Below, in pieces: positions 1,221-57,480 of a stretch of DNA of 59,154 nt; the first letter of the stretch is position 1; each line of letters begins with the position of its first letter. The notes beneath the pieces are model-generated. The model ran no database searches. It saw only the letters and a program-made list of their open reading frames with translations, and had not been told where the DNA came from. The stretch is taken from positions 1-59,154 of the IMG/VR virus record IMGVR_UViG_3300034072_000679, one strand, 5' to 3'. The stretch comes from a virus. A program made the translations under genes and the position numbers.

Positions 1221-3709
1221 TACAAGCCCTCCGGGTCGAGGTAGTCGCGGATGGCATCGCCTCGGGCGATCTCGTCCTCGGGCCACGCCCACGGCTTCAT
1301 GGACCAGTACTGGCGCTTCTCGCCGTTGACCTTGAAGCGACCGAGCAACGTGAAGCCGTATTGGCTCAGGAGGCGGCTCAGGGCCTTGCTCCGGGGTGCG
1401 AGAGCATCCGTGCCCATGAAGTGATCGGCGAGCTTGCCGCTGTCCAGCAGGAACTCGCTGTAATCGGGCTGGTCACTGGCCTCCAGCGTATCTTCCAGCG
1501 CCGTGACCTCCTCGGACTTGTTGAGCAGGATCATTTCGCGGCGATAGCTCGACTTCGGCGCACGAGCCTTCGGGTTGAAGTCGGGGCTGATATCCCGCAG
1601 CAAGAAGAACTGCCGGAGCGCACCCGCAAACTGGAGGATCGCGAACAGCCGGTCGTAGTAATGCGGGTTCTGAGACTTGAACAGGTCCAGATCGGTTGAC
1701 CGCTGGAACCGGGTGAAGATCGGGAAGATACGGCTATCCTCCTCACCAACCGGCATAGCGTCCTTCACGTTCGCCGTCATGATGTAGTTCATGGTGTTGA
1801 CGACCGAGTAGAGGTTCGTCTGCATCCGCCGGATCGAGACCTTGTGGTTCGTAATCATCGGCTTGAGGGTGTTGATAGCGTCGAAGCGATTGTTGCCGTG
1901 CAGGCGCACGTCCTCGATGAAGCACACCAGAGCGTTTTCCGCCCACGGGTTGTACTTCTCCTCCAGCGCGTTGCCCGCGATCAGGTTGACGTTGTTCTCG
2001 CCCAGAACGGCGCTCAGGACCGCCGAGAAGAACGACTTACCGTCGCCCTCGGCACCCTGCAACAGGATCGCCCAGTTCACCCGCTGGCCGGGGTACTTGA
2101 CGATGAAGGTCAGGAAATCGAGGAATATTCGACGGTCGTTCTCGTTCGCGATGATATGCTCAAGGTGTCCGAGGAAAATCTGAACGGCCTCCTCCTCGAC
2201 CGGCGAAAGCGGCCCCGGAAGTTCCGGGATTCCGGCTTCCGTGTAGCTGTTCGCGTAGTCGATCCCGTCGTACGAGTAGAGTGTCGGCTGTCCCGGCATG
2301 AACATGCGGTTATAGACGATGGGAATCTGATACAGATTGACGGCAGCATCGACCGGCTGCGTCTCCGGGGTGGACTTGCCTTCCAGCCGCTCGGTCGGAG
2401 TGAGCAGATAGCGGGAGTGGGCCACGTTGAAGGCAGCGCGGGTAAGCTGGGTCCGGTTGACGATGTTGAAAAGCTCGTCGGTCTCCGAGCAGTAGACCCA
2501 CGGCTTGACCCACGGCGGCGCGGAAATCATTTCGGTGTTCTCGTACCGAATCAGTTCGCGAACGAAACCGATTCTCGGGTTCTCCCCGGTGATCCGCTTC
2601 CAGTTCTGCTTGACCTTGCCAAGGATCAGTTCCCGGTTGTGTGCCGGGAGTTCGATCAGCTTGATCTGGGCGCACACAGCCGTAAGCTCGTCCACGGTCG
2701 TCGCACGGTGGATACCGTCGAGGAAGTCCTCGATCAGTTGCTTCGATTGCTGAGCCGCCGCTTCCTTGGAGAGCTTGAGGATGATCCGGCAGGTGATCGG
2801 GATATGCGCTTTGTCGCGGTTGTTGAAGGTCGGCCAGCGGTCCTCCAGAGCCTTGCGATCATAGTTATGCGCCGATTGCGACCAGCGGTCCCAGAGGTCG
2901 AAGCCCTCCTGCCCGCCGTCGTACTGGTGGTACAGCGCCATGCCGATCTGGAACCACGTATCGTGGTCCGTGTTGTCCTCGATCAGGAACAGCCTGCGCT
3001 CAAGCTCCTCGTCGCCGATCTGGACCTTGGGCCGGTAGGCGCTGAAAGGATCGTCGTCGTCATCGTCAATCGGGTTGACCAGACGGGTGATCGCGTTCTT
3101 CGTTTTCTTGGTCCAGCCGTGTTCGAGGAACAGGCTGAGGACCTTTTCCTTGATCTCCTTGGCCTGATCGTGCGTCAGGATCGGGAGTTCCGACCGAGGC
3201 AGGGTCAACGGAGAAGCCCCCAGCCACTTATAGGGCTTGCCCGTATCCGGGTGGACATGCGCCGCGACGAACTGCTGGCCGTCGGCGAGGATTTCGACCT
3301 TGGAGTCCCGGCCCTGACTGTCCAGCCACATGCCGGTATCGACCTTCGGGAACATGCCGCCCTTCTCTTGGCGGTAGACCCAGAGGACCTTGGGCGCGAA
3401 ACCGATTCGCTTGAGCGGAGTGTCGCCTACGACCTTGAGGATAATCTCCTGAACGCGGGCGATCATATCCTCGTCGCGGAGGTCGATGTCGATAGCCGGG
3501 ACCAGCCGGGACTTGATGCCGATCCCGTGACCACCTTTACCATCGGCGATGTAGTCGTGAACGCCTTCGACCGTACCGGCGAGCTTCTGCCAGTTCTTGC
3601 CAGCCGGGCGCTTCTCGCCCGGAATGATCGGGATGACCTCGTAACCGTTCTTGGCGATATCAACGCCAAATTCTTCCATGTAGCGCCGCGCGGCCATAGC
3701 TCCGGTCAC
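1220..3709 (-). CDS. Bifunctional primase-polymerase / SF3 (D5/P4-type) helicase
   Basis: 829 aa; N-terminal prim-pol like region (GYEVIPIIPGEKRP), PriCT-like middle (DTWFQIGMALYH), Walker A GAEGDGKS; ends DPEGL. Confidence 0.85.
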   Translation of the reverse strand: MTGAMAARRYMEEFGVDIAKNGYEVIPIIPGEKRPAGKNWQKLAGTVEGVHDYIADGKGGHGIGIKSRLVPAIDIDLRDEDMIARVQEIILKVVGDTPLKRIGFAPKVLWVYRQEKGGMFPKVDTGMWLDSQGRDSKVEILADGQQFVAAHVHPDTGKPYKWLGASPLTLPRSELPILTHDQAKEIKEKVLSLFLEHGWTKKTKNAITRLVNPIDDDDDDPFSAYRPKVQIGDEELERRLFLIEDNTDHDTWFQIGMALYHQYDGGQEGFDLWDRWSQSAHNYDRKALEDRWPTFNNRDKAHIPITCRIILKLSKEAAAQQSKQLIEDFLDGIHRATTVDELTAVCAQIKLIELPAHNRELILGKVKQNWKRITGENPRIGFVRELIRYENTEMISAPPWVKPWVYCSETDELFNIVNRTQLTRAAFNVAHSRYLLTPTERLEGKSTPETQPVDAAVNLYQIPIVYNRMFMPGQPTLYSYDGIDYANSYTEAGIPELPGPLSPVEEEAVQIFLGHLEHIIANENDRRIFLDFLTFIVKYPGQRVNWAILLQGAEGDGKSFFSAVLSAVLGENNVNLIAGNALEEKYNPWAENALVCFIEDVRLHGNNRFDAINTLKPMITNHKVSIRRMQTNLYSVVNTMNYIMTANVKDAMPVGEEDSRIFPIFTRFQRSTDLDLFKSQNPHYYDRLFAILQFAGALRQFFLLRDISPDFNPKARAPKSSYRREMILLNKSEEVTALEDTLEASDQPDYSEFLLDSGKLADHFMGTDALAPRSKALSRLLSQYGFTLLGRFKVNGEKRQYWSMKPWAWPEDEIARGDAIRDYLDPEGL
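2523..2533. repeat. GAAATSATTTC palindrome copy
   Basis: cGGAAATCATTTCGg; inside primase gene, read T-E-M-I-S on minus strand. Confidence 0.9.
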
Positions 3710-3975
3710 TCCGCGACGAAGATGTCAGGACGCAAAAATTCGCGCGGAAAGGTCTCGCGGCCCAGAAGCTCCTCGATCTTGAGACAGGTGTTGACGGTTA
3801 TGGTGCCGGTCGTGTTGAGTTGCATGTGCAGCATCGACGACGAGCCGCCGAGAGCCTGAGACAGCTTCCCGAGGCTCCCGCTTTTGTCGTGGTAGAACGC
3901 GGCCAGTCTTACGACAAACTCGGCTCTCTGGCCCGGCTCAACCCAAGCCGGGATCGGAAATTTCTCTACTGACAT
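3706..3975 (-). CDS. Helix-turn-helix DNA-binding protein (Cro/CI-like)
   Basis: 89 aa; GSLGKLSQALGGSSSMLHMQLN looks like an HTH; first gene of leftward primase operon. Confidence 0.6.
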   Translation of the reverse strand: MSVEKFPIPAWVEPGQRAEFVVRLAAFYHDKSGSLGKLSQALGGSSSMLHMQLNTTGTITVNTCLKIEELLGRETFPREFLRPDIFVAE

Positions 3976-4137
3976 GGAAAGCCCTTAGCCCTCGATTCGG
4001 CTGCAACGTGCCCGATCTGCTATTTTAACGCAAGTAAGTTTTGCCCTATTGACAGTAAATGGGGGCATGGGGCAAGTACGTGAGGCAACCCGATTCGGGG
4101 AGCGGTCGAATTATCCACAACCGGAGAAGTCAATACC
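3976..4137. promoter_or_regulatory. Divergent intergenic control region
   Basis: Lies between leftward 3975 and rightward 4138 starts; TTGACA at 4049-4054; GGGGCAAG (4069-4076) resembles the 56.4-kb iteron core. Confidence 0.4.
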
Positions 4138-4476
4138 ATGGGTATGATCGAACAGATCGCGGCGGACGTTGCCGCCATCAAGGAAATGCTGGCGAACGGT
4201 GCAGGTGCCCCGGCGGCAGCGGCGGCTGAGAAGCCGAAGCGCGCCCCGAAGGCGAAGGAGGAGAAGCCGAGCTTCACCGCCGACCAGCTTCGCGACAAGT
4301 TCCTCGAAGTCCAGCAGAAGCACGGCGATGCGGCGGCGAAGGCGTTGATCCGTGAGCAGGGCCACGAGAAGCTGGCGAACCTGATCGCCGACGCTGCCAA
4401 CTGGCAGAAGTACTGGGATGCGGCGGAGGAAAAGCTCGCCGAGGAGCCGGAAGGCGACGACAACGGCGGCCTCTGA
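4138..4476 (+). CDS. Hypothetical protein with acidic GGL C-terminus
   Basis: 112 aa; Ala/Lys-rich linker; ends EEPEGDDNGGL. Confidence 0.7.
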   Translation: MGMIEQIAADVAAIKEMLANGAGAPAAAAAEKPKRAPKAKEEKPSFTADQLRDKFLEVQQKHGDAAAKALIREQGHEKLANLIADAANWQKYWDAAEEKLAEEPEGDDNGGL

Positions 4477-4660: not shown

Positions 4661-5947
4661 ATGTCCGAACACCATCCGATCACTGACCAGATGCTCGCGG
4701 ACAAGAACGCCACGGGCCACTCGATCTTTGGGCCGTCTAGCGCACACCGCTGGATGCGTTGCCCGCGATCCCTTATTGCCGGACATCTGGCAGGCGACAA
4801 CCCGAGCTACTACGCGGCAGAGGGGTCCATAGCGCACTGGCTGGCCGAGGACTGGCTTCTCAATGGCAATCCTTATCGACATTTGGGCACGATCCACGAG
4901 AAAGACGGGTTCGAGATCGAGATCACCGAGGAAATGATTTCCTACGTCGAGGAGTACGTGTCGCTGGTCTCGACGATGCCCGGCAAGCACTACGTCGAAG
5001 TCAAGGTTGATCTTTCCAAATATACCCCTGTCCCCAGCTTCGGCACTTCCGATCACATTAGCGCCGAGTGGGGCATCCTGCGCGTCAAGGACCTCAAGTA
5101 CGGCAAGGTTTGGGTCGAGGCCGAAGATAACGAGCAAGGGCAGGCGTATGCTCTGGGCGCGTTCGAGGAGCTTGACTGGCTCTACAACTTCCAGACCATC
5201 GAGATTCAGATCGTCCAGCCGCGCCGGGATAACTACGATGTCTGGACCATCACCCGAGAGCAACTTCTTGAGTTCGGGGAGCGGTATCGCGAGGCCGCGC
5301 ACAAGGCGTGGGACCCGGAGGCTCCGTACAACCCGGACCCGATTGCTTGCGAGTACTGCCCGGCCCGGTTCGCCTGCCCGGCGCTCGCCGCCGTCAAGGT
5401 CAAGCTCGCGGCAGCCAGCTTCGACGATCTCGATGATACCGAGATGACCCCGTCTCAAGCCGTGGCCGTGATCGAGCAGGAAATGGTTTCCACGCCCCGG
5501 CTCCCTGCTTTCAACGAAGTCCCGGTCGAACGGCTCGCCCAGATTTACGAGTGGCGACCGATTCTGGAGAAGTATTTCCGGGAGATGTACGACTATCTGC
5601 TCAAGAAGCTGGAGATGGATGTCGAAGTTCCGGGGCAAAAACTCGGTATGGGCCGGGCGGGGAACCGTAAATGGACAGACGAGAAGGCCGCTCGTCGTAT
5701 GCTCAGAGGTCGTGGTATTACGGATATCGACATGTACGAGCAAAAATTCATTTCCCCTGCTCAGGCAGTTCAGCTATTAAGGGTTTCCCTTGGGGGCACG
5801 ATCAAGGAGAACGACGCGAGAATTGCGCCGTTCGTCTATCAGCCGCCGGGGAAAGTGACGATGATCCCAGCCAGCGACAAGCGGGAGGGGATTGCGTCAG
5901 CGGTGTCTGCGTTCGATGACGACGTAGATTCCATCGGTAACTCGTGA
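4661..5947 (+). CDS. PD-(D/E)XK nuclease, DUF2800/Cas4-like
   Basis: 428 aa; GTSDH...DLKYGK nuclease motif, C-terminal CEYCPARFACP cysteine cluster; synteny with DUF2815 and PolA. Confidence 0.8.
   Translation: MSEHHPITDQMLADKNATGHSIFGPSSAHRWMRCPRSLIAGHLAGDNPSYYAAEGSIAHWLAEDWLLNGNPYRHLGTIHEKDGFEIEITEEMISYVEEYVSLVSTMPGKHYVEVKVDLSKYTPVPSFGTSDHISAEWGILRVKDLKYGKVWVEAEDNEQGQAYALGAFEELDWLYNFQTIEIQIVQPRRDNYDVWTITREQLLEFGERYREAAHKAWDPEAPYNPDPIACEYCPARFACPALAAVKVKLAAASFDDLDDTEMTPSQAVAVIEQEMVSTPRLPAFNEVPVERLAQIYEWRPILEKYFREMYDYLLKKLEMDVEVPGQKLGMGRAGNRKWTDEKAARRMLRGRGITDIDMYEQKFISPAQAVQLLRVSLGGTIKENDARIAPFVYQPPGKVTMIPASDKREGIASAVSAFDDDVDSIGNS
4931..4941. repeat. GAAATSATTTC palindrome copy
   Basis: gGGAAATGATTTCCt-like context GAGGAAATGATTTCCTAC; read E-E-M-I-S. 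Confidence 0.9.
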
Positions 5948-6688: not shown

Positions 6689-8863
6689 ATGGGACGCACC
6701 CGACTCCACCACGACTACGAAGTCAAGAGTGAAGTCGATCTCCTTGCTCAGGGGATCGACCTTTACTCGTCTCACCAGTCCACCAAGGTTCTCATGTGTT
6801 CGTGGTCTCTCGACGACGAACCGACCCAGCTTTGGGTCCCAGCAGAAGGGGAGCCGATACCCTCCGACCTCAAGGAGGCCCTGCGGGACCCGGAGGTCGA
6901 TAAGATTGCGTTCAACGCTCAGTTCGAGCGGTGGATCGCTTGGCGCGTCCTCAAGCGCCAGATCGGGCTGGAGATCGAGCGCACCTACAAGCCGTGGCGC
7001 TGCTCCATGGCGCTCGCCTACATGTTCTCGTTCATGGGCGGTCTCGACGACATCGCGGACCAGATGTCCCTGCGCCACCGGAAGGACCCCCGTGGCCGGG
7101 CGCTGATCCGAGAGTTCTGTATGCCCAACAAGCCGACGAAGAAGCAGCCCTTCGTCTGGCGCGACCAACACAGCGATCCCGAGGATTGGGAGACGTTCAA
7201 GAAGTACTGTATCCGAGACAATGAATCGGAGAAAGAGCTTTGGTCCAAGCTGATTAAGTTCGGGGTCCCGGACTTCCAGTGGGACCTGTACGAGCTTGAC
7301 CAGATCATCAACGACCGGGGCCTCCCGATTAACCGCCGGTTCGTCGAGAACGCACTGGCAATCGCAGGGCGTCGTAAGACGGAACTCATTTCCGAGCAGA
7401 ACCGGATCACAGGTCTCGCGAACGCCAACAGCGGCGCTCAGCTTCTCCCGTGGCTGATCGACCGGGGCTACCCGTACGAAAACCTCCAGAAACAGAACAT
7501 AGTCAAGCTGCTGGCGGCAGAGGAGGAGGAAGTCCGCAACCCCTCGCCGACCTACGACTACGAGCAGAGAAAGCTCGTACCGAACAGCTACCCGGAGGCG
7601 TACTTCAATCCGCTGGGTCAGGTGGAGGGCAACGCTGTCCTGACGGCAGAGTGCCGGACTGTCCTGCGGATGCGGCAGGCATCGAGCAAGACTTCGACGA
7701 CCAAGTACGAAGCGACCATGGACCGGCTCGCCGACGACGACCGCTTGCGCCACTGTTTCCAGTACGCAGGCGGCTCGCGGACGAACCGCTGGGCCGGTCG
7801 GGCGCTCCAGCCGCAGAACCTCCCCAGAACGCCAAAATGGCTTGAGCCGGAGGACTACATCAACTTTGACCGGCTCGACTACTGCAATAGCCTGATCGAA
7901 GCCGGAGATTACGCCACTCTGGGCGTGTTCGCGGGCGAACAGATGGACGCGGTGGCCGGATGCGTCCGATCCACGATTCAGGCTTCCGAAGGCAAGAAGC
8001 TCGTTGTCAGCGATCTCTCCTCGATTGAGTCGGTGGTGATCTTCTGGATCACGGATTGCGAGCGCGGCTTGAATGTGTTCTGGAGTGGCAAGTGCGCTTA
8101 CAAGGACTTCGCGACCGATCTGTATGGTGTGCCCTATGAGGAAGTCACCAAGGCGCAGAGATCGGGCGCTAAGCCTGCGGTGTTGGGCGCAGGCTATCGT
8201 CTGTCAGGCGGCGAGCTACGAGACGGCGAGAAAACCGGCCTCTGGGCGTACGCCGAGAACATGGGTATCCAGATGACGCGCGAGGAGGCCAACCGCGCCG
8301 TGGATGTGTTCCGGGATACCTACAGCGAGATCAAGAACGCTTGGTACCAGATCGAGGATACCATCGAGCGCGCCATGGCGGCGGGCGGCAAGATCGTGAA
8401 GTGGGGCCATCTGGAGTTCCAGATCGTCAAGCCTTTCCTGCGCGTTGGGCTGCCGTCAGGCCGGTCTATGTGGTACTACCAGCTTCGGGTCGAGAAGTAC
8501 GAGGCAGAGGGTCGCTACGGCCCGTACATGCGGACCAATATCTCGTACATGGGAAAGTGCCAGATCACGCAGCAATGGAAGCGTATCGAGAGCCACGGCG
8601 GCAAGTTCATCGAGAACTTCGTGCAGGCCCTCGCCCGCGACATCCTCGGTTTCGGGATGCTGGCGGCGCACGAGGCAGGCTACTACATCTGCGGGCATGT
8701 TCACGACGAAATCATTTCCGAGGAGGACGAGGACGACGAGGTCCACAACCTCGACGGCTTGCGCCATTGCATGACTAAAGCTATCCAAGAGAAATACGCC
8801 TTCCTGCGTACCATGCCGCTCAACGCTGCCGGGTATGAGGGTCGAGTTTACAAGAAGGATTGA
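6689..8863 (+). CDS. Family A DNA polymerase with N-terminal 3'-5' exonuclease region
   Basis: 724 aa; DLSSIESVV (motif A), RSGAKPAVLGAGY (motif B), HVHDEI (motif C), QPQNLPR. Confidence 0.9.
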   Translation: MGRTRLHHDYEVKSEVDLLAQGIDLYSSHQSTKVLMCSWSLDDEPTQLWVPAEGEPIPSDLKEALRDPEVDKIAFNAQFERWIAWRVLKRQIGLEIERTYKPWRCSMALAYMFSFMGGLDDIADQMSLRHRKDPRGRALIREFCMPNKPTKKQPFVWRDQHSDPEDWETFKKYCIRDNESEKELWSKLIKFGVPDFQWDLYELDQIINDRGLPINRRFVENALAIAGRRKTELISEQNRITGLANANSGAQLLPWLIDRGYPYENLQKQNIVKLLAAEEEEVRNPSPTYDYEQRKLVPNSYPEAYFNPLGQVEGNAVLTAECRTVLRMRQASSKTSTTKYEATMDRLADDDRLRHCFQYAGGSRTNRWAGRALQPQNLPRTPKWLEPEDYINFDRLDYCNSLIEAGDYATLGVFAGEQMDAVAGCVRSTIQASEGKKLVVSDLSSIESVVIFWITDCERGLNVFWSGKCAYKDFATDLYGVPYEEVTKAQRSGAKPAVLGAGYRLSGGELRDGEKTGLWAYAENMGIQMTREEANRAVDVFRDTYSEIKNAWYQIEDTIERAMAAGGKIVKWGHLEFQIVKPFLRVGLPSGRSMWYYQLRVEKYEAEGRYGPYMRTNISYMGKCQITQQWKRIESHGGKFIENFVQALARDILGFGMLAAHEAGYYICGHVHDEIISEEDEDDEVHNLDGLRHCMTKAIQEKYAFLRTMPLNAAGYEGRVYKKD
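8708..8718. repeat. GAAATSATTTC palindrome copy
   Basis: GACGAAATCATTTCCGAG in PolA, directly after motif C; read D-E-I-I-S. Confidence 0.9.
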
Positions 8864-8865: not shown

Positions 8866-9675
8866 ATGCGCCTGTTCTACCACCCTGAAAGCGATAGCCT
8901 GTTCCTCTCTGAGCCGGGAGACTGGCAGAACTCGGCAGACGGCGCGCTCTCCGAAGATGTCAGCGATGACCCGAAGTTCCTTAATCTGGCTACGCTGGAG
9001 GATATCGACGTGAGCCTGATCGAGCCGCTGGAAAGCAGGCCCGCCAAGGCCGTCGGGATGGCGGGAGCGATCACCGAGGCGATGAAGAAGTGGGCGCGCA
9101 AGCCTGCTGATCTCTACCCCACGCCAGTCGATTGCACCTACAGCCTGTTGCCGCATATCGCCGATCTGGTCCCCCCTGACGCGAAAGTGTGGGAGCCTGC
9201 TTGCGCGGACGGCCAGATGGTCAGGCCGCTTGAGCAGTTCGGCTACCGCGTCACGGCTACCGATCTGCGGCCTGACGTGACGGGCGGGGTTGGCGGGATC
9301 GACTTCCTTGATCCCGTCTCTCCTTACCACGATCAGTCGTACGATCTCGTGGCGACCAATCCTCCCTTCGTGGCCGCTGACGCTTTTATCCGGCAAGCTC
9401 TGGAGCAGGCCCCGGTCGTAGTCATGCTCCTCAAGGCGCAGTACTGGAACACGAGGAATCGGAAGAAGCTGTTCCGTGAGACCAAGCCTTACAAGGAGCT
9501 TAACCTGACGTGGCGGCCCGCTTTCCTTGAGAAGGAGCGCGGCAAGTCACCTCTCATGGACTGCATGTGGGTTGTCTGGGTTCGCGGCCACCAAGGGCCT
9601 TGCACTACGGAGATGATTGACCGGCTGCTGGAGTGCCCGGTCAACGTCGGCGCGATGGACATGGGCGGCCTGTGA
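8866..9675 (+). CDS. SAM-dependent DNA methyltransferase (NPPF type), orphan
   Basis: VWEPACADGQ (motif I-like) and LVATNPPF (motif IV); ATG at 8866 after AGAAGGA; ends AMDMGGL. Confidence 0.7.
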   Translation: MRLFYHPESDSLFLSEPGDWQNSADGALSEDVSDDPKFLNLATLEDIDVSLIEPLESRPAKAVGMAGAITEAMKKWARKPADLYPTPVDCTYSLLPHIADLVPPDAKVWEPACADGQMVRPLEQFGYRVTATDLRPDVTGGVGGIDFLDPVSPYHDQSYDLVATNPPFVAADAFIRQALEQAPVVVMLLKAQYWNTRNRKKLFRETKPYKELNLTWRPAFLEKERGKSPLMDCMWVVWVRGHQGPCTTEMIDRLLECPVNVGAMDMGGL

Positions 9676-9989: not shown

Positions 9990-10220
9990 CGAAGAAGCGT
10001 TGCACTCGTTGTGGCGAGGAGAAGCCGCTAGAGCAGTTCCATCGCAACCGTGCGATGCCGGACGGACGGACGAACCCCTCAGTGCAGCGAATGTCACCTG
10101 AAATATGCTAGAGAGACTCGGTTGCGTCATCGCGCTCGGTTTCTTATTCGCGGAGCCAAGATGCGTTGCCGCAAAAGCGGTGTCGTGTTTGCTCTCGACG
10201 GGTACGAAGCAGAGGTAGAC

Positions 10221-10231
10221 GAAATGATTTC
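10221..10231. repeat. GAAATSATTTC palindrome copy
   Basis: GACGAAATGATTTCGCAA; read D-E-M-I-S. Confidence 0.9.
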
Positions 10232-10440: not shown

Positions 10441-10441
10441 C

Positions 10442-46433: not shown

Positions 46434-46436
46434 CTT

Positions 46437-47120: not shown

Positions 47121-47133
47121 TAGGGTTCTCCTG

Positions 47134-48412: not shown

Positions 48413-48654
48413 CAGTGCTTCACCGGCTTCGGTGCTGCCGGGAGCGCGGCCTGCGCTGCCAGCCAGTCATCGGTGGACAGGTAGACCGCGTTGTCGTCGT
48501 GGTTGATGACCGGGTGTCGGTCGTACACGATCCCGAGAAGCTGTTCGGTGTGGGGGTGGAAAATCTTCGTCCCCGGCTCGACCTGAATCGCGAGGACCTT
48601 GCCGATCTGCGCCATACGGCGCTGCTTGATCTCGGGTTCCTTGTTCTTAGCCAT
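48412..48654 (-). CDS. Hypothetical protein
   Basis: 80 aa ORF, start/stop coupled with neighbours. Confidence 0.55.
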   Translation of the reverse strand: MAKNKEPEIKQRRMAQIGKVLAIQVEPGTKIFHPHTEQLLGIVYDRHPVINHDDNAVYLSTDDWLAAQAALPAAPKPVKH

Positions 48655-48875
48655 TAGTCTCGACCTCCTCGCCCATCCTTGGGCTTGAACTGCTTGTAGG
48701 TGGCGATCATCTGCTCGCGCAGAATCGGAAATGATTTCTCGGCTGCCTCTGCTGGTGTTTCGCCGTCCTCCAGATCGACGGTCACTTGACCCTCGATCCG
48801 GAAGTTCTCGTAGGCGATATGCGGGTGCTGGTAAGTACGCGCAAAGCCGATGGTGATGCGGCTGACCCTAGGCAC
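48654..48875 (-). CDS. Hypothetical protein (start uncertain)
   Basis: C-terminal part of ORF 48654..49019 looks coding; candidate GTG 48875 overlaps upstream TAG. Confidence 0.4.
   Translation of the reverse strand: MPRVSRITIGFARTYQHPHIAYENFRIEGQVTVDLEDGETPAEAAEKSFPILREQMIATYKQFKPKDGRGGRD
48728..48738. repeat. GAAATSATTTC palindrome copy
   Basis: TCGGAAATGATTTCTCGG; read E-K-S-F-P on minus strand. Confidence 0.9.
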
Positions 48876-49254
48876 GGATGCCACCACTAAGGCGGAAAGG
48901 GCCGCCTTGTCGCGCCATCTCAGGGCCGGTCGGGAAGCCGCGCTCGCGCGCCTCCTCGTGCGACGTGATCGGCTGGTGGTCCGGAGACTCCGGGCAGTCG
49001 GTGTGGTGATCCCGGCCACGGGGGGTGTTCACGCAGCAGGGGATGGGACCCTCGGATGGGACCCTTACAAGCTCCAGCATGGGACCCATGGCGATTGCCA
49101 GAGCGCGGAGGTTGCTGTCCAGCTTGCCCCGGATCATCGTGAACTCGGGCATGATCTCACAGAGGTCGTCAAGGACCTCCTGCCGAGTGGCCGCCTCCTC
49201 ACTCAGGTACAGACCACCGTGCTTCGTCTTGAATCCGTTGAACGGCTCGACCAT
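48868..49254 (-). CDS. Hypothetical protein
   Basis: 128 aa ORF. Confidence 0.55.
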   Translation of the reverse strand: MVEPFNGFKTKHGGLYLSEEAATRQEVLDDLCEIMPEFTMIRGKLDSNLRALAIAMGPMLELVRVPSEGPIPCCVNTPRGRDHHTDCPESPDHQPITSHEEARERGFPTGPEMARQGGPFRLSGGIRA

Positions 49255-49271
49255 TGTATTCGACTCCTTGG

Positions 49272-49556
49272 TTACATGATCCTCGTGATGGCGACGGTCA
49301 GGACCAGCGCCCCGGCCTGCGTCATGAAGGACCCGTTCTCGACCGTGAACTTGCGCTCCTTGAACCGCCTGCGCGCCCGGTGGGTCTGCTGATCGGCGAT
49401 ACCGCGAAGCTGCCTGTTGTGTGCGCCGATGGCCCCGTCAGCGAAGCCATAGCGCATGTCGATGCGCCGGGAGATCGACACCGTATCACCGATGTCCATA
49501 TCCTCGATCATCGACTGCCGGTTCTCCTTCCGGCTGATCTCGTAAACTTCTTCCAT
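49272..49556 (-). CDS. Hypothetical protein, first gene of leftward accessory block
   Basis: ATG 49556 three nt after GAGGAG. Confidence 0.55.
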   Translation of the reverse strand: MEEVYEISRKENRQSMIEDMDIGDTVSISRRIDMRYGFADGAIGAHNRQLRGIADQQTHRARRRFKERKFTVENGSFMTQAGALVLTVAITRIM

Positions 49557-49625
49557 GTACTCCTCGACCGTTGATTCGGGGCAGCACAGATGCACGAAAC
49601 CTCCTAGACTGTCAAGCGGTCCCCT

Positions 49626-49670
49626 GACTCCGCTACAGAGGGGGTGCCCCGACTCCACTACAGGGGGGTT
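49626..49670. repeat. Two copies of GACTCC[G/A]CTACAG(A)GGGGG
   Basis: 49626-49648 and 49651-49670; same core as the 23-bp tandem repeats. Confidence 0.8.
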
Positions 49671-49675
49671 CGCTG

Positions 49676-49686
49676 GAAATCATTTC
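49676..49686. repeat. GAAATSATTTC palindrome copy
   Basis: CTGGAAATCATTTCCATT; inside the divergent repeat-rich control region. Confidence 0.9.
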
Positions 49687-49767
49687 CATTCACAGTCGTT
49701 CGCAGATCGTGATCGAGGTTGCGCGGGCGAGCGTCGTGGCCGAGCGGCTGGGATTCCGGCGAATCTG

Positions 49768-49836
49768 TCACACCACTACAGAGGGGGGTCTCACACCGCT
49801 ACAGAGGGGGGTCTCACACCGCTACAGAGGGGGTGC
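49768..49836. repeat. 23-bp tandem direct repeat x3 (TCACACC[A/G]CTACAGAGGGGGGTC)
   Basis: Units 49768-49790, 49791-49813, 49814-49836. Confidence 0.9.
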
Positions 49837-49852
49837 CTGATCTGCCCGCGAG

Positions 49853-49922
49853 CGCGCCTATACGTGCGCGCGTGTACGCGCCTATACGTGCGCGCGCGGC
49901 GCGCGTTACGCGCGCGCGCGGG
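49853..49922. repeat. Two copies of CGCGCCTATACGTGCGCGCG followed by alternating CG tract
   Basis: 49853-49872 and 49877-49896, then GCGCGCGGCGCGCGTTACGCGCGCGCGCG. Confidence 0.85.
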
Positions 49923-49934
49923 ATTCGACTCCAC

Positions 49935-50063
49935 GGCTGGGGCCGCCGGGCGATCAAGGCGAGGGGCTGGGGCCGCCGGGCGATCAAGGCGAGGGGCTGG
50001 GGCCGCCGGGCGATCAAGGCGAGGGGCTGGGGCCGCCGGGCGATCAAGGCGAGGGGCTGGGGC
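49935..50063. repeat. 30-bp tandem repeat x4.3 (GGCTGGGGCCGCCGGGCGATCAAGGCGAGG), iteron-like
   Basis: Perfect units at 49935, 49965, 49995, 50025 plus a 9-bp partial. Confidence 0.95.
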
Positions 50064-50158
50064 TTGTCTGTGATACCGCTAGACTCTGTTAAGGTCCCTG
50101 CGGTACAGGTGAGAGGCTGCGGCATAGGGCCGCCGCTTGATTCGTGGAGTTTTGACCT

Positions 50159-51250
50159 ATGAAAATCGTTCGCAACGAAACCGCGCGGGACCTTTTGACG
50201 GTCTCAGGCGTGACTCTGACCGTGTACTTTGAACCGCTCGCCCGCGCCTCGCAATTCTGGCGCGAGAGGGGGCGGACCCATTCGCAGGCGTTCCGGTTTA
50301 CTCACGACGGGCGCGAGTACTGGGGCGAGACCGTCCGGACCTTTGACAGGGCCGCCCCCTCGGGCGAGCGGGTCCGGGTTGACGTGGAATTGCGGACCCT
50401 TGCGGGCCGCTATGGCCGCGCCTTGCCCGAGAATCAGCGCCAGACTTGGCGGGCCGCGATCAAACGGCAATTTGCGCGGGACCTCGCCGCGTTCGTGGAG
50501 GCGGACGGCTCGCCGGAAACCGTGGAGGCCCGCGCCCGTGGCATGAAACCGGAACCCGTGCCCGCCGGGCCTGAGGCTGCGGCCACCGTGTCGATTGAAA
50601 CGAATTGGGCCGCAGCGGCGGGAATCATTGCCGTTGCCCTTGAAAACGGCACGGGCGAGGGCCGCCAGATGGCGCGCGAGGAATTGCAGCGGATGGCCGC
50701 CCTTGCGGATGAACGCAACGCCCTCGCGCGGGCAAAGGCTGAGGCGGAACCCGCGCAAAACGATATGCGCGAGGCCCTGCTATCGCTCGCAATGGTGGCA
50801 AATGAAACCGCGCACTGCGTAGGGGAACCGGGCGAGATCGCGCGGGATGAAATGGACTCGGCTATCGCGGCGGCCTTTGCGGCCCTCGGGACCGTAGGGG
50901 CGGGACCCTCGCCCGCGCAACGGATTGCCGAGGCGGCCCGGATTGCGCGCGAGGCGCGGGGCGGGTTTGGTCCGGATGAAAACGGGCGGGCCTTGCTGGA
51001 CTCCATTCTGGCGGCCCTTGAACCGCCCGCGCGGCCCGTGGAGCGTGTCACGGTGGCGGACGCTGAGGCGGACGGCTCGCCCTGTTACCGCGTGGCCGCT
51101 GAGGCTGCGGACGGCTCGCCCGTGGAGCTGATTCAATATGCGCCCGGATATCCCGAGGCGGAAAGCCTCGCCCGCACCATGGCCGCCCGGTTCCGTGTCG
51201 ATATCTACGACTCAACCGCTGAGGGCCGCGCGGCCCTCGCCCGTTCCTGA
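50159..51250 (+). CDS. Hypothetical protein (first gene of compositional island)
   Basis: 363 aa Ala/Arg/Glu-rich ORF. Confidence 0.6.
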   Translation: MKIVRNETARDLLTVSGVTLTVYFEPLARASQFWRERGRTHSQAFRFTHDGREYWGETVRTFDRAAPSGERVRVDVELRTLAGRYGRALPENQRQTWRAAIKRQFARDLAAFVEADGSPETVEARARGMKPEPVPAGPEAAATVSIETNWAAAAGIIAVALENGTGEGRQMAREELQRMAALADERNALARAKAEAEPAQNDMREALLSLAMVANETAHCVGEPGEIARDEMDSAIAAAFAALGTVGAGPSPAQRIAEAARIAREARGGFGPDENGRALLDSILAALEPPARPVERVTVADAEADGSPCYRVAAEAADGSPVELIQYAPGYPEAESLARTMAARFRVDIYDSTAEGRAALARS

Positions 51251-52755: not shown

Positions 52756-52961
52756 GGCCGCTAGAACCGGCTGAGATCGCCGCAAACTGGGCCGCCGCGC
52801 GGCGGTACCTGCGGCGATATTTCCTCGCCCTTATGTTGCCCGCCCTCGCCCTGATATGGGCGAGCGGGTACGGCAAGGGCCTGTTAGACGGCTGGGCCGC
52901 CGCAATGCGCGAGGCCCGCCCGGAAACCGTTTCCAAGGAGTCAAAAAATGCGAGTATTTGA
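52749..52961 (+). CDS. Small membrane protein
   Basis: ATG overlaps upstream stop (ATGCTGA); hydrophobic YFLALMLPALALIWASG. Confidence 0.45.
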   Translation: MLRPLEPAEIAANWAAARRYLRRYFLALMLPALALIWASGYGKGLLDGWAAAMREARPETVSKESKNASI

Positions 52962-53863: not shown

Positions 53864-54132
53864 ACAGCGGACAGATTCACAGGTTCCGGGATTCCGTGGC
53901 GGCCTATATCGGCACGGGCGCAACAGTCTACATGACACCCGGCGAGGCGCGGGCCATGGCGCGGGCGTTGAACCGGGCCGCCCGTTCCGTGGAGCGGGAA
54001 CCGTTCGCCCGTTCCGCAGGCGTAACGACTCAACTCACCTTTGCCGATTGGCATAGGTCCGGCGAATCCATGCCGGAAATTGCCCGCGATGAAACCGGGC
54101 GAGCCGTCCGCCGGAAAAGGGGGGCCGCCTGA
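53860..54132 (+). CDS. Small hypothetical protein
   Basis: ATGA overlap with upstream stop; AAGGAGTC upstream. Confidence 0.5.
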   Translation: MNSGQIHRFRDSVAAYIGTGATVYMTPGEARAMARALNRAARSVEREPFARSAGVTTQLTFADWHRSGESMPEIARDETGRAVRRKRGAA

Positions 54133-54377
54133 TGGCCGTGGAAATCATTTCCGGACGTAAGGTCCGGGTTTCACCCGAGGGCGTGGCGAGCTTTAACCGG
54201 GCGTGGCCCTGTTCAACCCTCAGGGCGAGCCGCGCATATTGGTTTGAGTTCGATTCGCGCGGCGATCTAATCGACACGGATTGTCCGGAATCGGATGATG
54301 GCCCGGCGGCCCTCGCCCTTGCTGAGGATTGCAAGGCGTACCTGTTCAACGGAACGCGGCCTATTTGGGCCGCCTGA
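54132..54377 (+). CDS. Small hypothetical protein
   Basis: 81 aa ORF, ATG overlaps upstream TGA. Confidence 0.5.
   Translation: MAVEIISGRKVRVSPEGVASFNRAWPCSTLRASRAYWFEFDSRGDLIDTDCPESDDGPAALALAEDCKAYLFNGTRPIWAA
54141..54151. repeat. GAAATSATTTC palindrome copy
   Basis: GTGGAAATCATTTCCGGA; read V-E-I-I-S; the only perfect copy inside the island. Confidence 0.9.
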
Positions 54378-55811: not shown

Positions 55812-56054
55812 GCCCGCAAACAGGGCGAGCCGTAGGGCCGCCTGTAGGGCCTCAGGATTGCACGAAAATGATTCAGCTAGGGGCATGGCGGGCCGCCCTG
55901 AATCATTACGCAAAGGGCCTCAGAATGGCCGCTAGGCCCTGATTCATTTGCCAAGGGGGTTTTAGGTACTACGGGCGAGCGGGCCGCCGGGCGGTGGGGG
56001 CGCTGAGCCGCTTTTCTTCTGACATTCCGGATTTCGCGTATGACCTCGCTATTG

Positions 56055-56065
56055 GAAATGATTTC
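56055..56065. repeat. GAAATSATTTC palindrome copy
   Basis: TTGGAAATGATTTCCGTG; non-coding hub. Confidence 0.9.
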
Positions 56066-56097
56066 CGTGATCCTGCTCGACCGATATCCCGGATCGC

Positions 56098-56108
56098 GAA
56101 ATCATTTC
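56098..56108. repeat. GAAATSATTTC palindrome copy
   Basis: CGCGAAATCATTTCCAGA; 43 bp from the previous copy. Confidence 0.9.
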
Positions 56109-56403
56109 CAGACTTGCCCCGGATATGCGCTGAGATCGTGCAGGCAGAGGGACCCTATAGGCGATTCCGGGTTCCGAGATAGGTTCATGAATCAGAAACC
56201 TATTTCAGTTGCATTTTGCAACCGGGGGCAAGATCGAACGAAAACCCCTACTTCACCCTGCCAGAAAAAATTTTCACGTTTGTTAGGTATATCGGACTTA
56301 ACGATTTGAAATTTTTCTCTACATGTGGACTTCAGATTTTATGGTTTTCTTGCCCCTTTAGGGGGTTATATCGAAAAAAGTACAGGAAATCAGGATTTTG
56401 CTA

Positions 56404-56548
56404 GGGGCAAGATCAGGGGCAAGATCAGGGGCAAGATTGATCTTGCCCCTCGCGGGTCGGACAATCTGATTCATTTTCCCCCTCCCAGTGGCCGCTGAAT
56501 CAGGGGCACGATTGATCTTGCCCCTGATCTTGCCCCTGATCTTGCCCC
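56404..56548. repeat. Iteron array GGGGCAAGATCA arranged as a 46-bp inverted repeat pair
   Basis: Left arm 56404-56449 has three direct plus one inverted unit. Right arm 56503-56548 has one direct (GGGGCACGAT) plus three inverted units. Extra units at 56225-56236 and 56348-56356. Confidence 0.9.
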
Positions 56549-56655
56549 CGGTTGCATTTTGAAACCTATAAGTGATTCAGACATAACGGGGCTTGATTCT
56601 GATTCAGAAATTCGCTAGGGCCGGAAAGTCGAAGCCGAACGAGTGAGTCGAGTTC

Positions 56656-57480
56656 ATGATCCTGTATACCCGCAAAGGCGAAGCTCTCCGTGTCACCAGC
56701 CGCGACGAGAAGGGCAATCCGATCTCCGTGCAGGATCGCACCTGTTGGCGCTGCGGCGGCTTGGGTGGTGCTGAGGCTTGGCGACACACTGGCTGGACGT
56801 GCTACCGCTGTGGCGGTACTGGGCGCGATCCCGTGCAAGAGCGTGTCCGTCTCTACACTCCCGAGCAGAACGCGAAGCTGGACGCGGCAGCCGAGAAGCG
56901 GGCCGCCAAGAAGGCCGCTGCTCGTGCCGAAGCCGAGCGGATCGAGCAGGAGCGCCGGGATCGCGAGCGAGCGGAAATCATTTCCACCAATCAGGGCTTC
57001 ATCGCCCGGATCGACGCGGAACTGGCGCACGGCGAGAGTGAGTTCCTGCAATCGGTGCGTGACAGGATCGTCGAGCAGGCCAAGGAGCCGACCGATGCCC
57101 AGATCAGCAAGGTCAATGAGGTCATCGAGCGCAACGAGAAAGAACGCGTTCGGCTGGCAGCCGCTCGTCACGTTGGCGAGATCAAGGAGCGCCGTGTGTT
57201 CGATCTCACTCTGGTCCATACCCAGACCCGGCTGGTGAGCGAGTATCCGCATATCTATTCGCACTGGAGCTTGTTCACCGACGAGAACGGCTGCAAGATC
57301 GCCTGCAAGTCGGCCCCCGGCGTGATCGGCCTCAAGAAGGAAACGCTGGAAGGCGAGACTTGGGACCAGCGGCGCTATCTCAAAGGAGCCAAGGTTCGCG
57401 TTAAGGCCACCGTGGTCGAACACACCTACGACAAGAACGGCGAACCGATCACCTACATCAACCGACCGAAGGCGGCCTGA
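56656..57480 (+). CDS. DnaJ-type CxxCxGxG zinc-finger protein with coiled coil
   Basis: CWRCGGLG and CYRCGGTG motifs, charged helical middle, beta-rich C-terminus; first gene after the non-coding hub. Confidence 0.6.
   Translation: MILYTRKGEALRVTSRDEKGNPISVQDRTCWRCGGLGGAEAWRHTGWTCYRCGGTGRDPVQERVRLYTPEQNAKLDAAAEKRAAKKAAARAEAERIEQERRDRERAEIISTNQGFIARIDAELAHGESEFLQSVRDRIVEQAKEPTDAQISKVNEVIERNEKERVRLAAARHVGEIKERRVFDLTLVHTQTRLVSEYPHIYSHWSLFTDENGCKIACKSAPGVIGLKKETLEGETWDQRRYLKGAKVRVKATVVEHTYDKNGEPITYINRPKAA
56974..56984. repeat. GAAATSATTTC palindrome copy
   Basis: GCGGAAATCATTTCCACC; read A-E-I-I-S. Confidence 0.9.

Follow-up and report, generated by a model that had tools for sequence, protein, structure and literature searches.

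A dispersed palindrome in a phage genome

The window, that is, the whole stretch of 59,154 nucleotides that was analysed, is a 59-kb phage genome. It codes for an orphan ParB/KorB-family protein and a GapR-like protein in a gapR-parB operon, and it carries dispersed copies of the palindrome GAAATSATTTC. The elements of the operon and the sites are as follows.

Operon
39820-41064, minus strand: orphan ParB/KorB-family protein, 414 aa, the candidate binder
41098-41403, minus strand: GapR-like (DUF2312) gene, first of the operon
41464-41469, minus strand: TTGACA, -35-like hexamer; copy 41481 lies 11 nt upstream of it

Perfect copies
2523-2533: GAAATCATTTC, primase-helicase gene (1220-3697, minus strand), frame 0
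4931-4941: 13-mer GGAAATGATTTCC, DUF2800 nuclease gene, frame 0
8708-8718: PolA gene, frame 0
10221-10231: between 9989 and 10442, or in a weak ORF (10050-10448)
10430-10440: 13-mer, immediately followed by the ATG (10442) of a DEAD helicase gene
14263-14273: large terminase gene, frame 0
18583-18593: intergenic, between protease and decoration genes, shortly before the ribosome-binding site
21774-21784: the ATG at its centre serves as start codon for gene 21777-22325
23431-23441: 13-mer, frame 0
30587-30597: 13-mer, frame 1 (N-D-F)
32150-32160: tail J-like gene; kept in relative L252
41481-41491: 78-88 nt upstream of the gapR-parB operon
42742-42752: another TTGACA (minus strand) 16 nt away; kept in 5 relatives
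44277-44287: 13-mer, TopoVI-A/Spo11-like gene; 7 of 8 relatives retain it
45523-45533: codons ~7-10 of an acyl-carrier-protein-like gene
46423-46433: 13-mer, directly before the minus-strand ATG of gene 45774-46421; 6 relatives retain it, the centre being either C or G
48728-48738: frame 2 (K-S-F); kept in 4 relatives
49676-49686: 13-mer, main divergent intergenic region, flanked by two groups of iteron-like repeats
54141-54151: 13-mer, codons 4-7 of a small ORF (54132-54377)
56055-56065: 13-mer, codons 6-9 of a small ORF (56040-56309)
56098-56108: 43 bp from copy 56055
56974-56984: 13-mer, frame 0

One-mismatch copies
5480-5490: GAAATGGTTTC
7382-7392: GAACTCATTTC, PolA gene; the copy of phage Carli is 4 codons away
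16492-16502: GAACTGATTTC, portal gene
18086-18096: GAAATCAGTTC, protease gene
25083-25093: tape-measure gene
27044-27054: tape-measure gene
33964-33974: GAAACCATTTC
36032-36042: right after a stop codon (36031), at the start of the intergenic stretch that precedes the lysis cassette
39701-39711: GTAATGATTTC, DprA-like gene
57809-57819: GAAATCGTTTC

Symmetric two-mismatch palindrome
52923-52933: GAAACCGTTTC, as a 13-mer GGAAACCGTTTCC

All 22 start coordinates reported in the initial annotation correspond to exact GAAATSATTTC words. Its estimate of far fewer than one chance occurrence, with A and T near 0.19 each (0.191 and 0.185 by our count), was borne out, as dinucleotide-preserving shuffles gave 0.02 copies on average and 1 at most. 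One-mismatch copies number 10, versus 0.2 expected, bringing the total to ~32 sites of this 11- to 13-bp palindrome. Nine of them had already been listed; the copy at 25083 had been missed, and the site placed at 52922 turned out to be the symmetric two-mismatch palindrome at 52923, a second such palindrome being present at 14621. The consensus is YGGAAAT-S-ATTTCCR, and the centre is never A or T. The 13-mer GGAAATSATTTCC occurs 10 times, but its description as the predominant form was overstated, as a flanking G is present on 68% of the sides of the 11-mer.

Selection at the DNA level

Genes harbour 17 copies of GAAATSATTTC, versus 1.3 on average and at most 6 when synonymous codons are shuffled within genes. 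Each of the 12 E-[IM]-I-S peptides is spelled GAA-ATS-ATT-TCN, the codons that form the motif, and this spelling includes rare codons (GAA, 30% of Glu; ATT, 15% of Ile). Among relatives, 28 of 29 orthologous copies are kept perfect at 79% flank identity, and their centre base toggles between C and G. Synonymous shuffles, rare-codon spelling and conservation in relatives together indicate that selection works at the DNA level, on the nucleic acid and not on the peptide, in agreement with the initial annotation, whose proposed codon-preserving control the motif withstood. The perfect copies fully inside called genes are found in frame 0 (n=10), frame 1 (n=2) and frame 2 (n=1). The other 9 of the 22 are not fully within a gene, in a genome whose non-coding share is only ~10%, and 6 copies lie within 30 nt of a start codon (1.9 expected). 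The arrangement at 21774, with the start codon inside the palindrome, occurs twice in Carli.

Two motif types in related phages

GAAATSATTTC is also present in Sphingomonas phage Carli and ~10 metagenomic relatives, including L001-L006, L251 and L252. The variant GAAATCGTTTC recurs 20 times in Carli. A sister clade, which encompasses Erythrobacter phage R16L as well as L018, L041, L129, L134, L150, L253 and L254, carries ~30 copies of GAAGTWACTTC instead. At codon ~296 of TerL and codon ~1024 of the tape-measure protein, the motif type has been converted in place.

Neither word was found in 1.25 Mb of DNA from 80 alphaproteobacterial genomes, mostly of Sphingomonadales (Novosphingobium, Sphingomonas, Erythrobacter and other alphaproteobacteria). 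Birtae and Kimi, two unrelated phages with the same host strain as Carli, harbour 0 and 1 copies, respectively, at ≤1 mismatch, and no ParB or GapR homologue was found in them. The motif claim also survived this comparison with host DNA: the motif is a property of this phage lineage and not a host word. The Casjensviridae phages AH2 and SS2019XI have ParB-like proteins with ~30% identity, yet no dispersed over-represented word was found in them, indicating that a ParB-like gene alone does not predict an array.

Even spacing of the sites

Spacing statistics were computed with sites harbouring at most one mismatch in the window, Carli and R16L. In the three genomes the sites are spaced much more evenly than by chance, with gap coefficients of variation of 0.59, 0.42 and 0.56, respectively, versus 0.96 expected (P ≤ 5e-4 each), and largest gaps of 4.5, 3.0 and 3.7 kb, versus 6.3-7.5 kb expected. 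The mean gap is 1.5-1.9 kb. The tape-measure and tail region, initially described as sparse, is so for perfect copies, but one-mismatch copies occupy the gaps that these leave.

The ParB-like protein and its operon

The copy at 41481 is a conserved, promoter-proximal copy of autoregulatory type. The TTGACA hexamer next to it is followed 17 nt later by a CAGATG box, an arrangement conserved in both clades. A copy 3-15 nt upstream of TTGAC[AT] precedes the gapR-parB operon in the window, L001-L005, Carli, R16L, L134, L150 and L255, and in L253 the same copy and box precede parB alone, with no gapR there. Carli and R16L each have, in addition, a copy adjoining a TTGAC[AT] box at the place equivalent to 36032.

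The ParB-like protein comprises an N-terminal nucleotide-binding domain with a GEHRFDAAK sequence, which aligns with GERRFRAAK of Spo0J, a helix-turn-helix (HTH) domain, whose recognition helix is R165-H166-V-D-N169, a long helix rich in K, A and E, and, at the C-terminus, a conserved DDGMGGL sequence. It matches Pfam HTH_ParB with 25.5 bits (cutoff, 22.6), and its match to the KorB domain is weak. Among PDB structures, its AlphaFold2 model (pLDDT 82) is closest to KorB of RK2 (8qa9), with Spo0J, ParB and Noc next.

In 120 of 120 family-A sequences the recognition helix is R-H-x-x-N, and the protein of Carli, only 34% identical, has the same residues. In family B, 119 of 120 sequences have R-Y-x-x-D; P0204, with R-T-x-x-D, still has the B motif. 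As judged from these alignments, two recognition-helix residues switch with motif type. Two of the ~10 discriminating columns, in a total of ~270, fall within the helix of ~10 residues (P only ~0.05). The association of helix type with motif type is also confounded with phylogeny, there being two clades, with Carli as the sole deep independent branch.

Proposed role of the array and alternative explanations

The initial annotation had read the palindrome as a two-fold symmetric site for a dimeric protein, which we also consider the best reading of the sequence, and it had named five candidate binders. The ParB-like protein appears to fit best, given the operon copy in both clades, the helix co-variation and the predicted KorB/ParB/Noc fold. 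We thus propose, with a probability of roughly 0.55, that the array represents binding or loading sites for this phage-encoded protein. The palindrome would be its double-stranded DNA site, and the copy just upstream of the -35-like box of its operon is where one would expect autoregulation to take place. Some 30 further copies, one every 1.5-2 kb across the whole genome, would be accommodated in intergenic DNA where available, and otherwise in coding DNA in the least costly reading frame. By analogy with KorB, ParB and Noc, dimers may load at these sites and then either remain as operators or roadblocks or form nucleotide-dependent clamps that slide over a kilobase or two. If clamps slide between evenly spaced sites, they would cover the entire phage chromosome. 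The array might serve the global timing or silencing of transcription, or the organisation or protection of replicating phage DNA.

It is unlikely, albeit conceivable, that the sites are operators or roadblocks for another phage regulator, namely the Cro-like HTH protein coded at 3706-3975 or an unrecognised small protein, in a shutdown or timing of transcription similar to that mediated by the stoperators of cluster A mycobacteriophages. The latter have comparable copy number, 13-bp length and dispersal, and the enrichment of our ~30 sites in non-coding DNA and near starts would suit such a function. Nevertheless, the sites are palindromic and mostly within genes, and promoter-linked operators are not expected to be evenly spaced. 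The HTH protein was not supported: the window and Carli have the motif in common but differ in the recognition helix of this protein, and its own divergent promoter region (3975-4138) harbours no copy with ≤2 mismatches. The only DNA-binding proteins found to be common to the window, Carli and R16L are the ParB-like, GapR-like and replication proteins. However, a large number of small early proteins lack any recognisable homologue or domain, and the true binder could be a small, rapidly evolving DNA-binding protein that tblastn did not detect.

Recruitment of a Sphingomonadales host protein, for instance a nucleoid-associated protein or a transcription factor, by sites that the phage would have accumulated for this purpose, appears improbable. 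The motif type tracks both host genus and phage clade (Sphingomonas for Carli, Erythrobacter for R16L), and distant Casjensviridae of beta- and gammaproteobacteria lack any such word. In this explanation, the two motif types would mirror two host groups, Sphingomonas/Novosphingobium and Erythrobacter. It is at odds with the absence of both words from the alphaproteobacterial DNA and with the motif-free phages of Carli's strain, and the parB-promoter copy and co-varying helix residues point to a phage-encoded partner.

The GapR-like protein, another of the initial candidates, probably does not provide the sequence-specific binding. GapR has a preference for AT-rich or overtwisted DNA, and AT-rich copies might nucleate it and, through it, recruit topoisomerases at regular intervals along a GC-rich genome, relieving supercoiling in replication and transcription, a topological role that would fit regular spacing. 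Its gene is co-transcribed with parB behind a copy and is the only DNA-binding gene common to the window, Carli and R16L yet absent from AH2 and SS2019XI. This explanation is nonetheless quite unlikely: of the best 80 loci among >400 GapR-like viral contigs, only 4 have either motif, and 12 copies and the promoter copy are retained in L253, whose parB has no neighbouring gapR. No column of the GapR alignment tracks motif type, the protein of the window being closer to that of R16L (65% identity) than to that of Carli (41%), and ten invariant positions with G/C ends are unlike a general AT-rich preference.

A palindrome identical from either end and regularly spaced might also suit a tracking enzyme that needs a signal every few kilobases, be it as a target for modification, nicking or cleavage or as a Chi-like signal, read in both directions, that halts a helicase-nuclease and thereby protects phage DNA. 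The genome does encode a methyltransferase, a PD-(D/E)XK nuclease, a VRR-NUC-type neighbourhood and a TopoVI-A/Spo11-like protein. We regard this as very improbable. The methyltransferase and the Spo11-like protein, both initially proposed as partners, were not supported, the former being absent from Carli and the latter from Carli and R16L; the nuclease and helicases also occur in motif-free AH2 and SS2019XI, and a host Chi is contradicted by the absence of the word from the 1.25 Mb of alphaproteobacterial DNA. A perfect palindrome does not fit the nick-site analogy drawn earlier, and nicks on both of its strands would break the genome ~30 times.

Finally, a function at the RNA level, be it through a small hairpin or through an mRNA element that binds protein, with effects on translation or decay, is hardly credible: the palindrome does yield the same RNA word from either strand, and copies 10430, 46423, 21774, 18583, 54141, 56055 and 45523 overlap translation start regions, but the 13-mer folds with only -1.6 kcal/mol, no better than shuffles, an RNA element does not need perfect two-fold symmetry, most copies lie deep within long genes, and the conserved promoter copy, upstream of the -35 box, is probably untranscribed from that promoter.

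Comparison with known systems

We found no description of such an evenly spaced palindrome array in a lytic phage. The analogy with stoperators made in the initial annotation goes as far as copy number and length, and no further. Binding by the ParB-like protein, our preferred reading, would relate the array to KorB, ParB and Noc, from which it would nevertheless depart in two respects. Box II of the protein is degenerate (GEHR versus GERR) and, at the position of the box III catalytic Glu, the alignment shows another residue, making CTP binding, hydrolysis and sliding uncertain. Moreover, the phage half-sites are arranged GAAA..TTTC, in contrast with those of parS and Noc sites, in which the order is TTTC..GAAA, and the docking geometry would therefore differ.

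A dispersed palindrome under selection as DNA

The 11-bp palindrome GAAATSATTTC has 22 exact matches in the window, against 0.02 expected, and all 22 coordinates reported in the initial annotation proved to be exact matches. Ten of these copies extend to the 13-mer GGAAATSATTTCC. In the symmetrised profile, the flanking position is a G on 68% of sides, and the next base outwards is a pyrimidine on ~65%. The centre base of the window copies is never A or T. Ten further copies differ from the motif by one mismatch (0.2 expected). The previous list of such relatives holds, except that the copy at 25083 had been overlooked and that the entry at 52922 is really a symmetric double variant, GGAAACCGTTTCC.

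Selection targets the nucleic acid. The codon-preserving control proposed in the initial annotation was performed by within-gene synonymous codon shuffles, which yielded a mean of 1.3 copies and a maximum of 6, compared with 17 real copies in genes, and selection at the DNA level is thus borne out. The peptide E-[IM]-I-S, found 12 times, is always encoded by GAA-ATS-ATT-TCN, of which GAA (30%) and ATT (15%) are minority codons. In-gene copies strongly favour frame 0 (10:2:1 in the window and 14:6:2 in the Sphingomonas phage Carli), which is the frame that costs the fewest rare codons. Against a genome that is ~90% coding, 9 of the 22 copies are not wholly intragenic, the other 13 (59%) lying fully inside genes. 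Orthologous copies are still perfect in 28 of 29 cases across relatives, at a mean flank identity of 79%, with a centre base that toggles between C and G. Selection for a hairpin in RNA or single-stranded DNA was rejected, as the predicted folding energy is only -1.6 kcal/mol. The motif is most probably a selected protein-binding site on double-stranded DNA, a reading to which we give a probability of about 0.85.

Genome organization

The window comprises 59,154 bp with a G+C content of 62%. It carries a 127-bp direct terminal repeat, positions 1-127 being identical to 59028-59154, a sign that the phage genome is complete and was assembled as a circle (or is terminally redundant). The major capsid protein of the window shares 45-46% identity with those of Carli and of the Erythrobacter phages R16L and R22L, and 40-44% with those of Casjensviridae members. 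The genes are organized in four blocks:

1026-3975, minus strand: leftward block, with primase-helicase and a small HTH protein
4138-38920, plus strand: long rightward block, with replication, terminase, head, tail and lysis genes
39186-49595, minus strand: leftward block
50159 to window end, plus strand: rightward block

The nearest GapR homologues in cellular genomes are those of Novosphingobium (70-79% identity), which makes a sphingomonad the probable host. Neither an integrase nor an immunity repressor was seen in the window, and Carli has been described as lytic (PMC10385605).

The leftward early block also codes for four proteins, the first two of which are unusual for a siphophage:

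44099-45151, minus strand: TopoVI-A/Spo11-like protein
45303-45551, minus strand: acyl-carrier-protein-like (PP-binding) protein
39343-39816, minus strand: DprA-like protein
43213-43629, minus strand: MazG-like pyrophosphatase

ARAGORN predicted a tRNA-Asp(GTC) at 20894-20981 (minus strand), within the plus-strand structural gene 20718-21125, a call that is likely to be spurious.

The main divergent intergenic region, 49595-50159, is dense in repeats:

49633, 49658, 49776, 49799 and 49822, all plus strand: CTACAGRGGGG, five iteron-like copies with a 23-25 bp period
49847-49920: three GC-rich 24-bp units
49935-50063: four perfect tandem 30-bp units, GGCTGGGGCCGCCGGGCGATCAAGGCGAGG

A copy of the palindrome is found between the two iteron groups, and a related word, CACAGAGGGG, is present six times in R16L. 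The region looks like an origin or an early-control region.

Two motifs of the same architecture in related phages

Six IMG/VR relatives of the window harbour 5-8 copies of GAAATSATTTC per 13-21 kb, and six copies are found in each of the more divergent viral contigs L251 and L252. Carli (L081+L082, OR225223) has 16 perfect copies together with a single asymmetric variant, GAAACGATTTC, that recurs 20 times. The strand of this variant shows no obvious relation to transcription, and its recurrence suggests that the binder tolerates a GAAAC half-site. GAAAC is also a half-site word of parS.

R16L contains no GAAATSATTTC and has 18-23 copies of an 11-bp palindrome of the same architecture, GAAGTWACTTC, which is likewise found in contigs L018, L041, L129, L134, L150, L253 and L254. 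Carli and R16L share the codon position of at least two copies, each genome with the motif of its own clade. At the shared TerL site, C-G-N-H-F is encoded by GGAAATCATTTC in Carli and C-G-S-Y-F by GGAAGTTACTTC in R16L, and the same in-place exchange is found around codon 1024 of the tape measure gene.

The possibility that the palindrome is a trivial host word, raised in the initial annotation, was addressed with 1.25 Mb of DNA drawn from 80 genomes of alphaproteobacteria, for the most part of the genera Novosphingobium, Sphingomonas and Erythrobacter. Neither motif occurs in this set, and we rejected a host-genome word such as an uptake sequence, Chi or a REP-like element on this basis. Birtae and Kimi, two unrelated phages whose isolation host is the strain used for Carli (PMC10385605), have zero and one copy with at most one mismatch, respectively. 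A scan of the Casjensviridae phages AH2 and SS2019XI for any over-represented dispersed word found none, and the sequence upstream of their parB genes was inspected for a single operator. These three negative controls indicate that the motif belongs to the phage lineage rather than to the host or to codon usage.

Birtae (L256) and Kimi (L257) have an over-represented asymmetric word of their own, [GA]ATGTGGGCA or TGTGGGCA, present 7-8 times in each, which may be a promoter element. Repeated palindromes were also observed in other viral contigs, namely ACAGAATTCTGT four times in 20 kb in L142 (IMGVR_UViG_3300010207_000032), TTAGCnnGCTAA five times in L075 and GGCCATGGCC five times in L028. These words may represent site arrays of a comparable kind in unrelated phages.

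Four motif strings searched in the literature matched unrelated eukaryotic primers only, and the literature covering phage ParB and Casjensviridae repeats yielded nothing describing the motif or its arrangement. Palindromes and ParB both go unmentioned in the Carli paper (PMC10385605). We thus found no description of the motif or its arrangement in the searchable literature. The two motifs constitute sharp sequence markers for spotting this phage clade in metagenomes.

Even spacing of the sites

When perfect and one-mismatch copies are pooled, the window has 32 sites, Carli 39 and R16L 31. The gaps between them vary less than under random placement, with coefficients of variation of 0.59, 0.42 and 0.56, respectively, for an expected 0.96 (P = 5e-4, <5e-5 and 3e-4). 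Gaps reach at most 4.5 kb in the window, 3.0 kb in Carli and 3.7 kb in R16L, where the largest gap would be expected to measure 6.3-7.5 kb. In the window, the perfect copies by themselves look clustered, and one-mismatch copies occupy the tape-measure and tail regions. The sparseness previously noted in these regions is thus true of the perfect copies alone and disappears once the one-mismatch copies are counted. At the codon level, the positions of the copies are mostly unconserved among the window, Carli and R16L. As most individual positions turn over at long distances, density and regularity seem to be the maintained property.

Candidate binding proteins

Besides replication proteins, the DNA-binding proteins common to the window, Carli and R16L are a ParB-like protein, a GapR-like protein and the small HTH protein encoded near the primase gene. 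The ParB-like protein (39820-41064, minus strand; 414 residues) shows variation that parallels that of the motif. It has roughly 450 homologues, and two families can be told apart by the recognition helix, which reads R-H-[VI]-[DE]-N in 120 of 120 family A sequences and R-Y-[LI]-[DE]-D in 119 of 120 family B sequences, the exception being P0204, with T in place of Y. All the family A contigs examined have GAAATSATTTC, and all the family B contigs examined, including that of P0204, have GAAGTWACTTC. The discriminating residues, H166/N169 for the first type and Y/D for the second, follow the motif type. The Carli protein is 34% identical to that of the window, making it about as distant as that of R16L, and it retains the H and N residues along with GAAATSATTTC. 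As P0204 keeps the motif of its family despite the Y-to-T replacement, it is uninformative on specificity at the residue level. This co-variation between helix and motif is confounded by phylogeny and only suggestive.

A copy of the palindrome is also found at the promoter-like region of the operon that comprises the gapR-like gene (41098-41403, minus strand) and parB:

41481-41491: promoter copy, downstream of the stop codon of the preceding gene and ahead of the gapR-parB operon
41469-41464, minus strand: TTGACA, 11 nt downstream of this copy, with a CAGATG box 17 nt further on

L001-L005, Carli, R16L, L134, L150 and L255 likewise have a copy ahead of the operon with TTGAC[AT] 3-15 nt downstream of it, and in L253 this pair precedes parB alone. 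In every case the promoter copy carries the motif of its own clade. It sits where an autoregulatory operator is classically located, a position that KorB class I operators occupy too. A second conserved location for a copy is the head of the intergenic region preceding the lysis cassette.

An inverted repeat with a 14-bp stem, TGACATCTGCG..CGCAGATGTCG (41438-41468, minus strand), spans the -35 to -10 segment of the promoter-like sequence of gapR-parB. It is common to the window and L001 and absent from L002-L005, and it could be a terminator of the upstream gene or a second operator.

From the co-variation and the promoter copy, we lean slightly towards the ParB-like protein as the binder. The GapR-like protein, whose gene follows the same promoter copy, was rejected because either motif is present in only 4 of the best 80 among >400 viral contigs that encode such a protein, and no column of its alignment separates the motif groups; furthermore, L253 retains its array although gapR is not adjacent to parB. 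The small HTH protein (3706-3975), also common to the three phages, was discarded because the window and Carli, although they have the same motif, differ in its recognition helix, and because its own promoter lacks a copy. The methyltransferase (8866-9675, PHROG 799) has a homologue in R16L and none in Carli, which has 39 copies. This absence argues against the enzyme as the binder, and the motif as the target of a restriction-modification system or an orphan methyltransferase was rejected since the enzyme is not conserved wherever the motif is. The TopoVI-A/Spo11-like protein (PHROG 6247), whose relatives are found in 92 viral contigs of 33-72% GC, was rejected as it is missing from two motif-carrying genomes, those of Carli and R16L. 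Nick sites of the T5 or tf type were dismissed since the consensus is a perfect palindrome and not strand-specific and asymmetric.

Features of the ParB-like protein

The Pfam HTH_ParB profile matches residues 133-201 of the window protein with 25.5 bits (cutoff 22.6), and a weak match to the Pfam KorB domain was also obtained. PHROG 1033, 'ParB-like partition protein', matches it at 2.7e-41. The box II sequence GEHRFDAAK aligns with GERRFRAAK of Bacillus subtilis Spo0J (6sdk), the HTH aligns with Spo0J too, and G86 and R89 are invariant among 47 homologues. We assign the protein a ParB/Srx nucleotide-binding N-terminal domain with GxxR and a central HTH. In the AlphaFold2 model (pLDDT 82), the HTH helices correspond to residues 153-160 and 164-174, and Foldseek ranked KorB of RK2 as the best match, followed by Spo0J, Myxococcus ParB and Noc.

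GxxR and N129 of box III are kept; box II reads GEHR or GHTR, and the position of the catalytic Glu is not a Glu. With boxes II and III only partly conserved, the sequence does not discriminate between static binding and an NTP-dependent sliding clamp. The even spacing of 1.5-1.9 kb is compatible with short-range sliding.

The C-terminal part of the model consists of a confident long helix (292-352) and a disordered tail (355-414), and nothing matched the canonical C-terminal domain. This region (40000-39820, minus strand) comprises a long Lys/Ala/Glu-rich helix and a disordered Pro/Ala/Lys tail with a conserved acidic tip, DDGMGGL. The tail resembles the linker-plus-tip interaction tails of the SSB type.

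A KGGxxK[ST] Walker A motif, as in a ParA partner, is absent from all six frames of the window. The ParB-like protein lacks the ParA-binding motif [LFI]G[KR]G[LFI], and no canonical parS with up to three mismatches was found in the window. Given these absences, the arrangement does not amount to a partition system. Scans of ~50 window proteins against Pfam and PHROG revealed no KorA-type or IncC homologues, and no dioxygenase was found in the domain and family scans of these proteins. In a preprint on ParB-dependent thymine dioxygenases, the ParBs have no DNA-binding domain.

Proposed mechanism

In the mechanism that we propose, the orphan ParB/KorB-type protein would recognize the palindrome as its cognate site and regulate its own operon through the promoter copy. 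The other ~30 copies would serve as binding or loading sites, leaving no point of the genome beyond ~2 kb from one. The protein might either remain in place or form an NTP-dependent sliding clamp. KorB itself is a CTP-dependent sliding clamp that mediates long-range silencing (PMC11790492). The purpose could be the timing or silencing of transcription, or the organization or shielding of replicating DNA.

Coating of the genome by sliding or spreading is a tentative proposal. In its full form, lytic siphophages that infect sphingomonads and form a large clade, most of it uncultured, would tile their chromosome with loading sites for their own orphan ParB/KorB clamp and coat it entirely, a scenario that we regard as possible and rather doubtful. 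With sites every 1.5-2 kb, ~20 of them in coding sequence and paid for in rare codons and altered amino acids, a single protein would coat or self-mark the entire viral genome, forming a sequence-addressed, chromatin-like layer. Specificity would have changed at least once, from GAAAT-S-ATTTC to GAAGT-W-ACTTC, involving ~30 sites and the recognition helix together.

A 2025 survey describes the orphan ParB-like genes of phages as numerous and unexplored (PMC12704722). In the present case, the cognate site of such a protein, its copy number and its layout appear to be readable from the genome, and a specificity swap between two clades is supplied naturally. The function of phage ParB proteins may thereby become directly accessible to experiment, with Carli and its host Sphingomonas sp. 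LR55 as the cultured system. The palindromes GGAAATSATTTCC, GGAAACGATTTCC and GGAAGTWACTTCC are proposed as test sites for the ParB-like proteins (WLJ71149 for Carli and XMP32120 for R16L). If the protein does coat the genome, this would represent a new viral way to organize, time or shield DNA, and a compact model of one protein co-evolving with dozens of sites, many of them in genes.

Comparison with known systems

Among known systems, KorB with its OB operators on RK2 comes closest, the nearest cellular one being Noc and the nearest in phages the stoperators. The OB core is TTTAGC-G/C-GCTAAA (PMC11790492). Like OB, the extended site GGAAAT-S-ATTTCC is a 13-bp, odd, perfect palindrome with a central G/C, dispersed in many copies over a replicon of ~60 kb, some just upstream of a -35 box and others intragenic or distant. 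A ParB-family binder and regulation of its own operon are further likenesses, binding being predicted in our case. The site sequences are unrelated, however, and RK2 has 12 OB copies, compared with ~32 evenly spaced, mostly coding sites in the window. The replicon is also a lytic phage and not a plasmid, and KorA-like and IncC/ParA partners were not found. The two proteins share ~20% identity, and the long K/A/E-rich helix and disordered tail differ from the KorB C-terminal domain.

Noc is likewise an orphan ParB paralogue without ParA, with dozens of palindromic sites chromosome-wide and spreading. Its B. subtilis site, ATTTCCCGGGAAAT, includes the same GGAAAT half-site word, but the half-sites face the opposite way (ATTTCC..GGAAAT versus GGAAAT..ATTTCC here), and Noc is a cellular regulator of the division site, not a viral protein. 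With ParB-parS, P1 ParB and N15 SopB, the window protein shares the family, with an N-terminal GxxR domain followed by the HTH, as well as, by prediction, palindromic cognate sites and an autoregulated operon. In N15, several centromere sites are scattered in the phage genome and also affect gene expression. In contrast with these systems, there is no ParA here, the sites are ten-fold more numerous and genome-wide instead of confined to one region, and nothing suggests a plasmid-prophage lifestyle.

The stoperators of cluster A mycobacteriophages, bound by the L5 gp71 repressor, are ~25-30 copies of a 13-bp site through which one phage protein has a genome-wide effect, and the window resembles them in copy number, site length and dispersal. 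Stoperators are asymmetric, oriented with transcription and located in short intergenic gaps, and they silence temperate prophages, whereas the window sites are palindromic, 59% intragenic and evenly spaced. Relative to KorB, Noc and stoperators, the distinguishing features are a lytic-phage replicon, about three times as many sites as for KorB, their even tiling, the location of most of them in coding sequences and a documented switch of specificity between sister clades.
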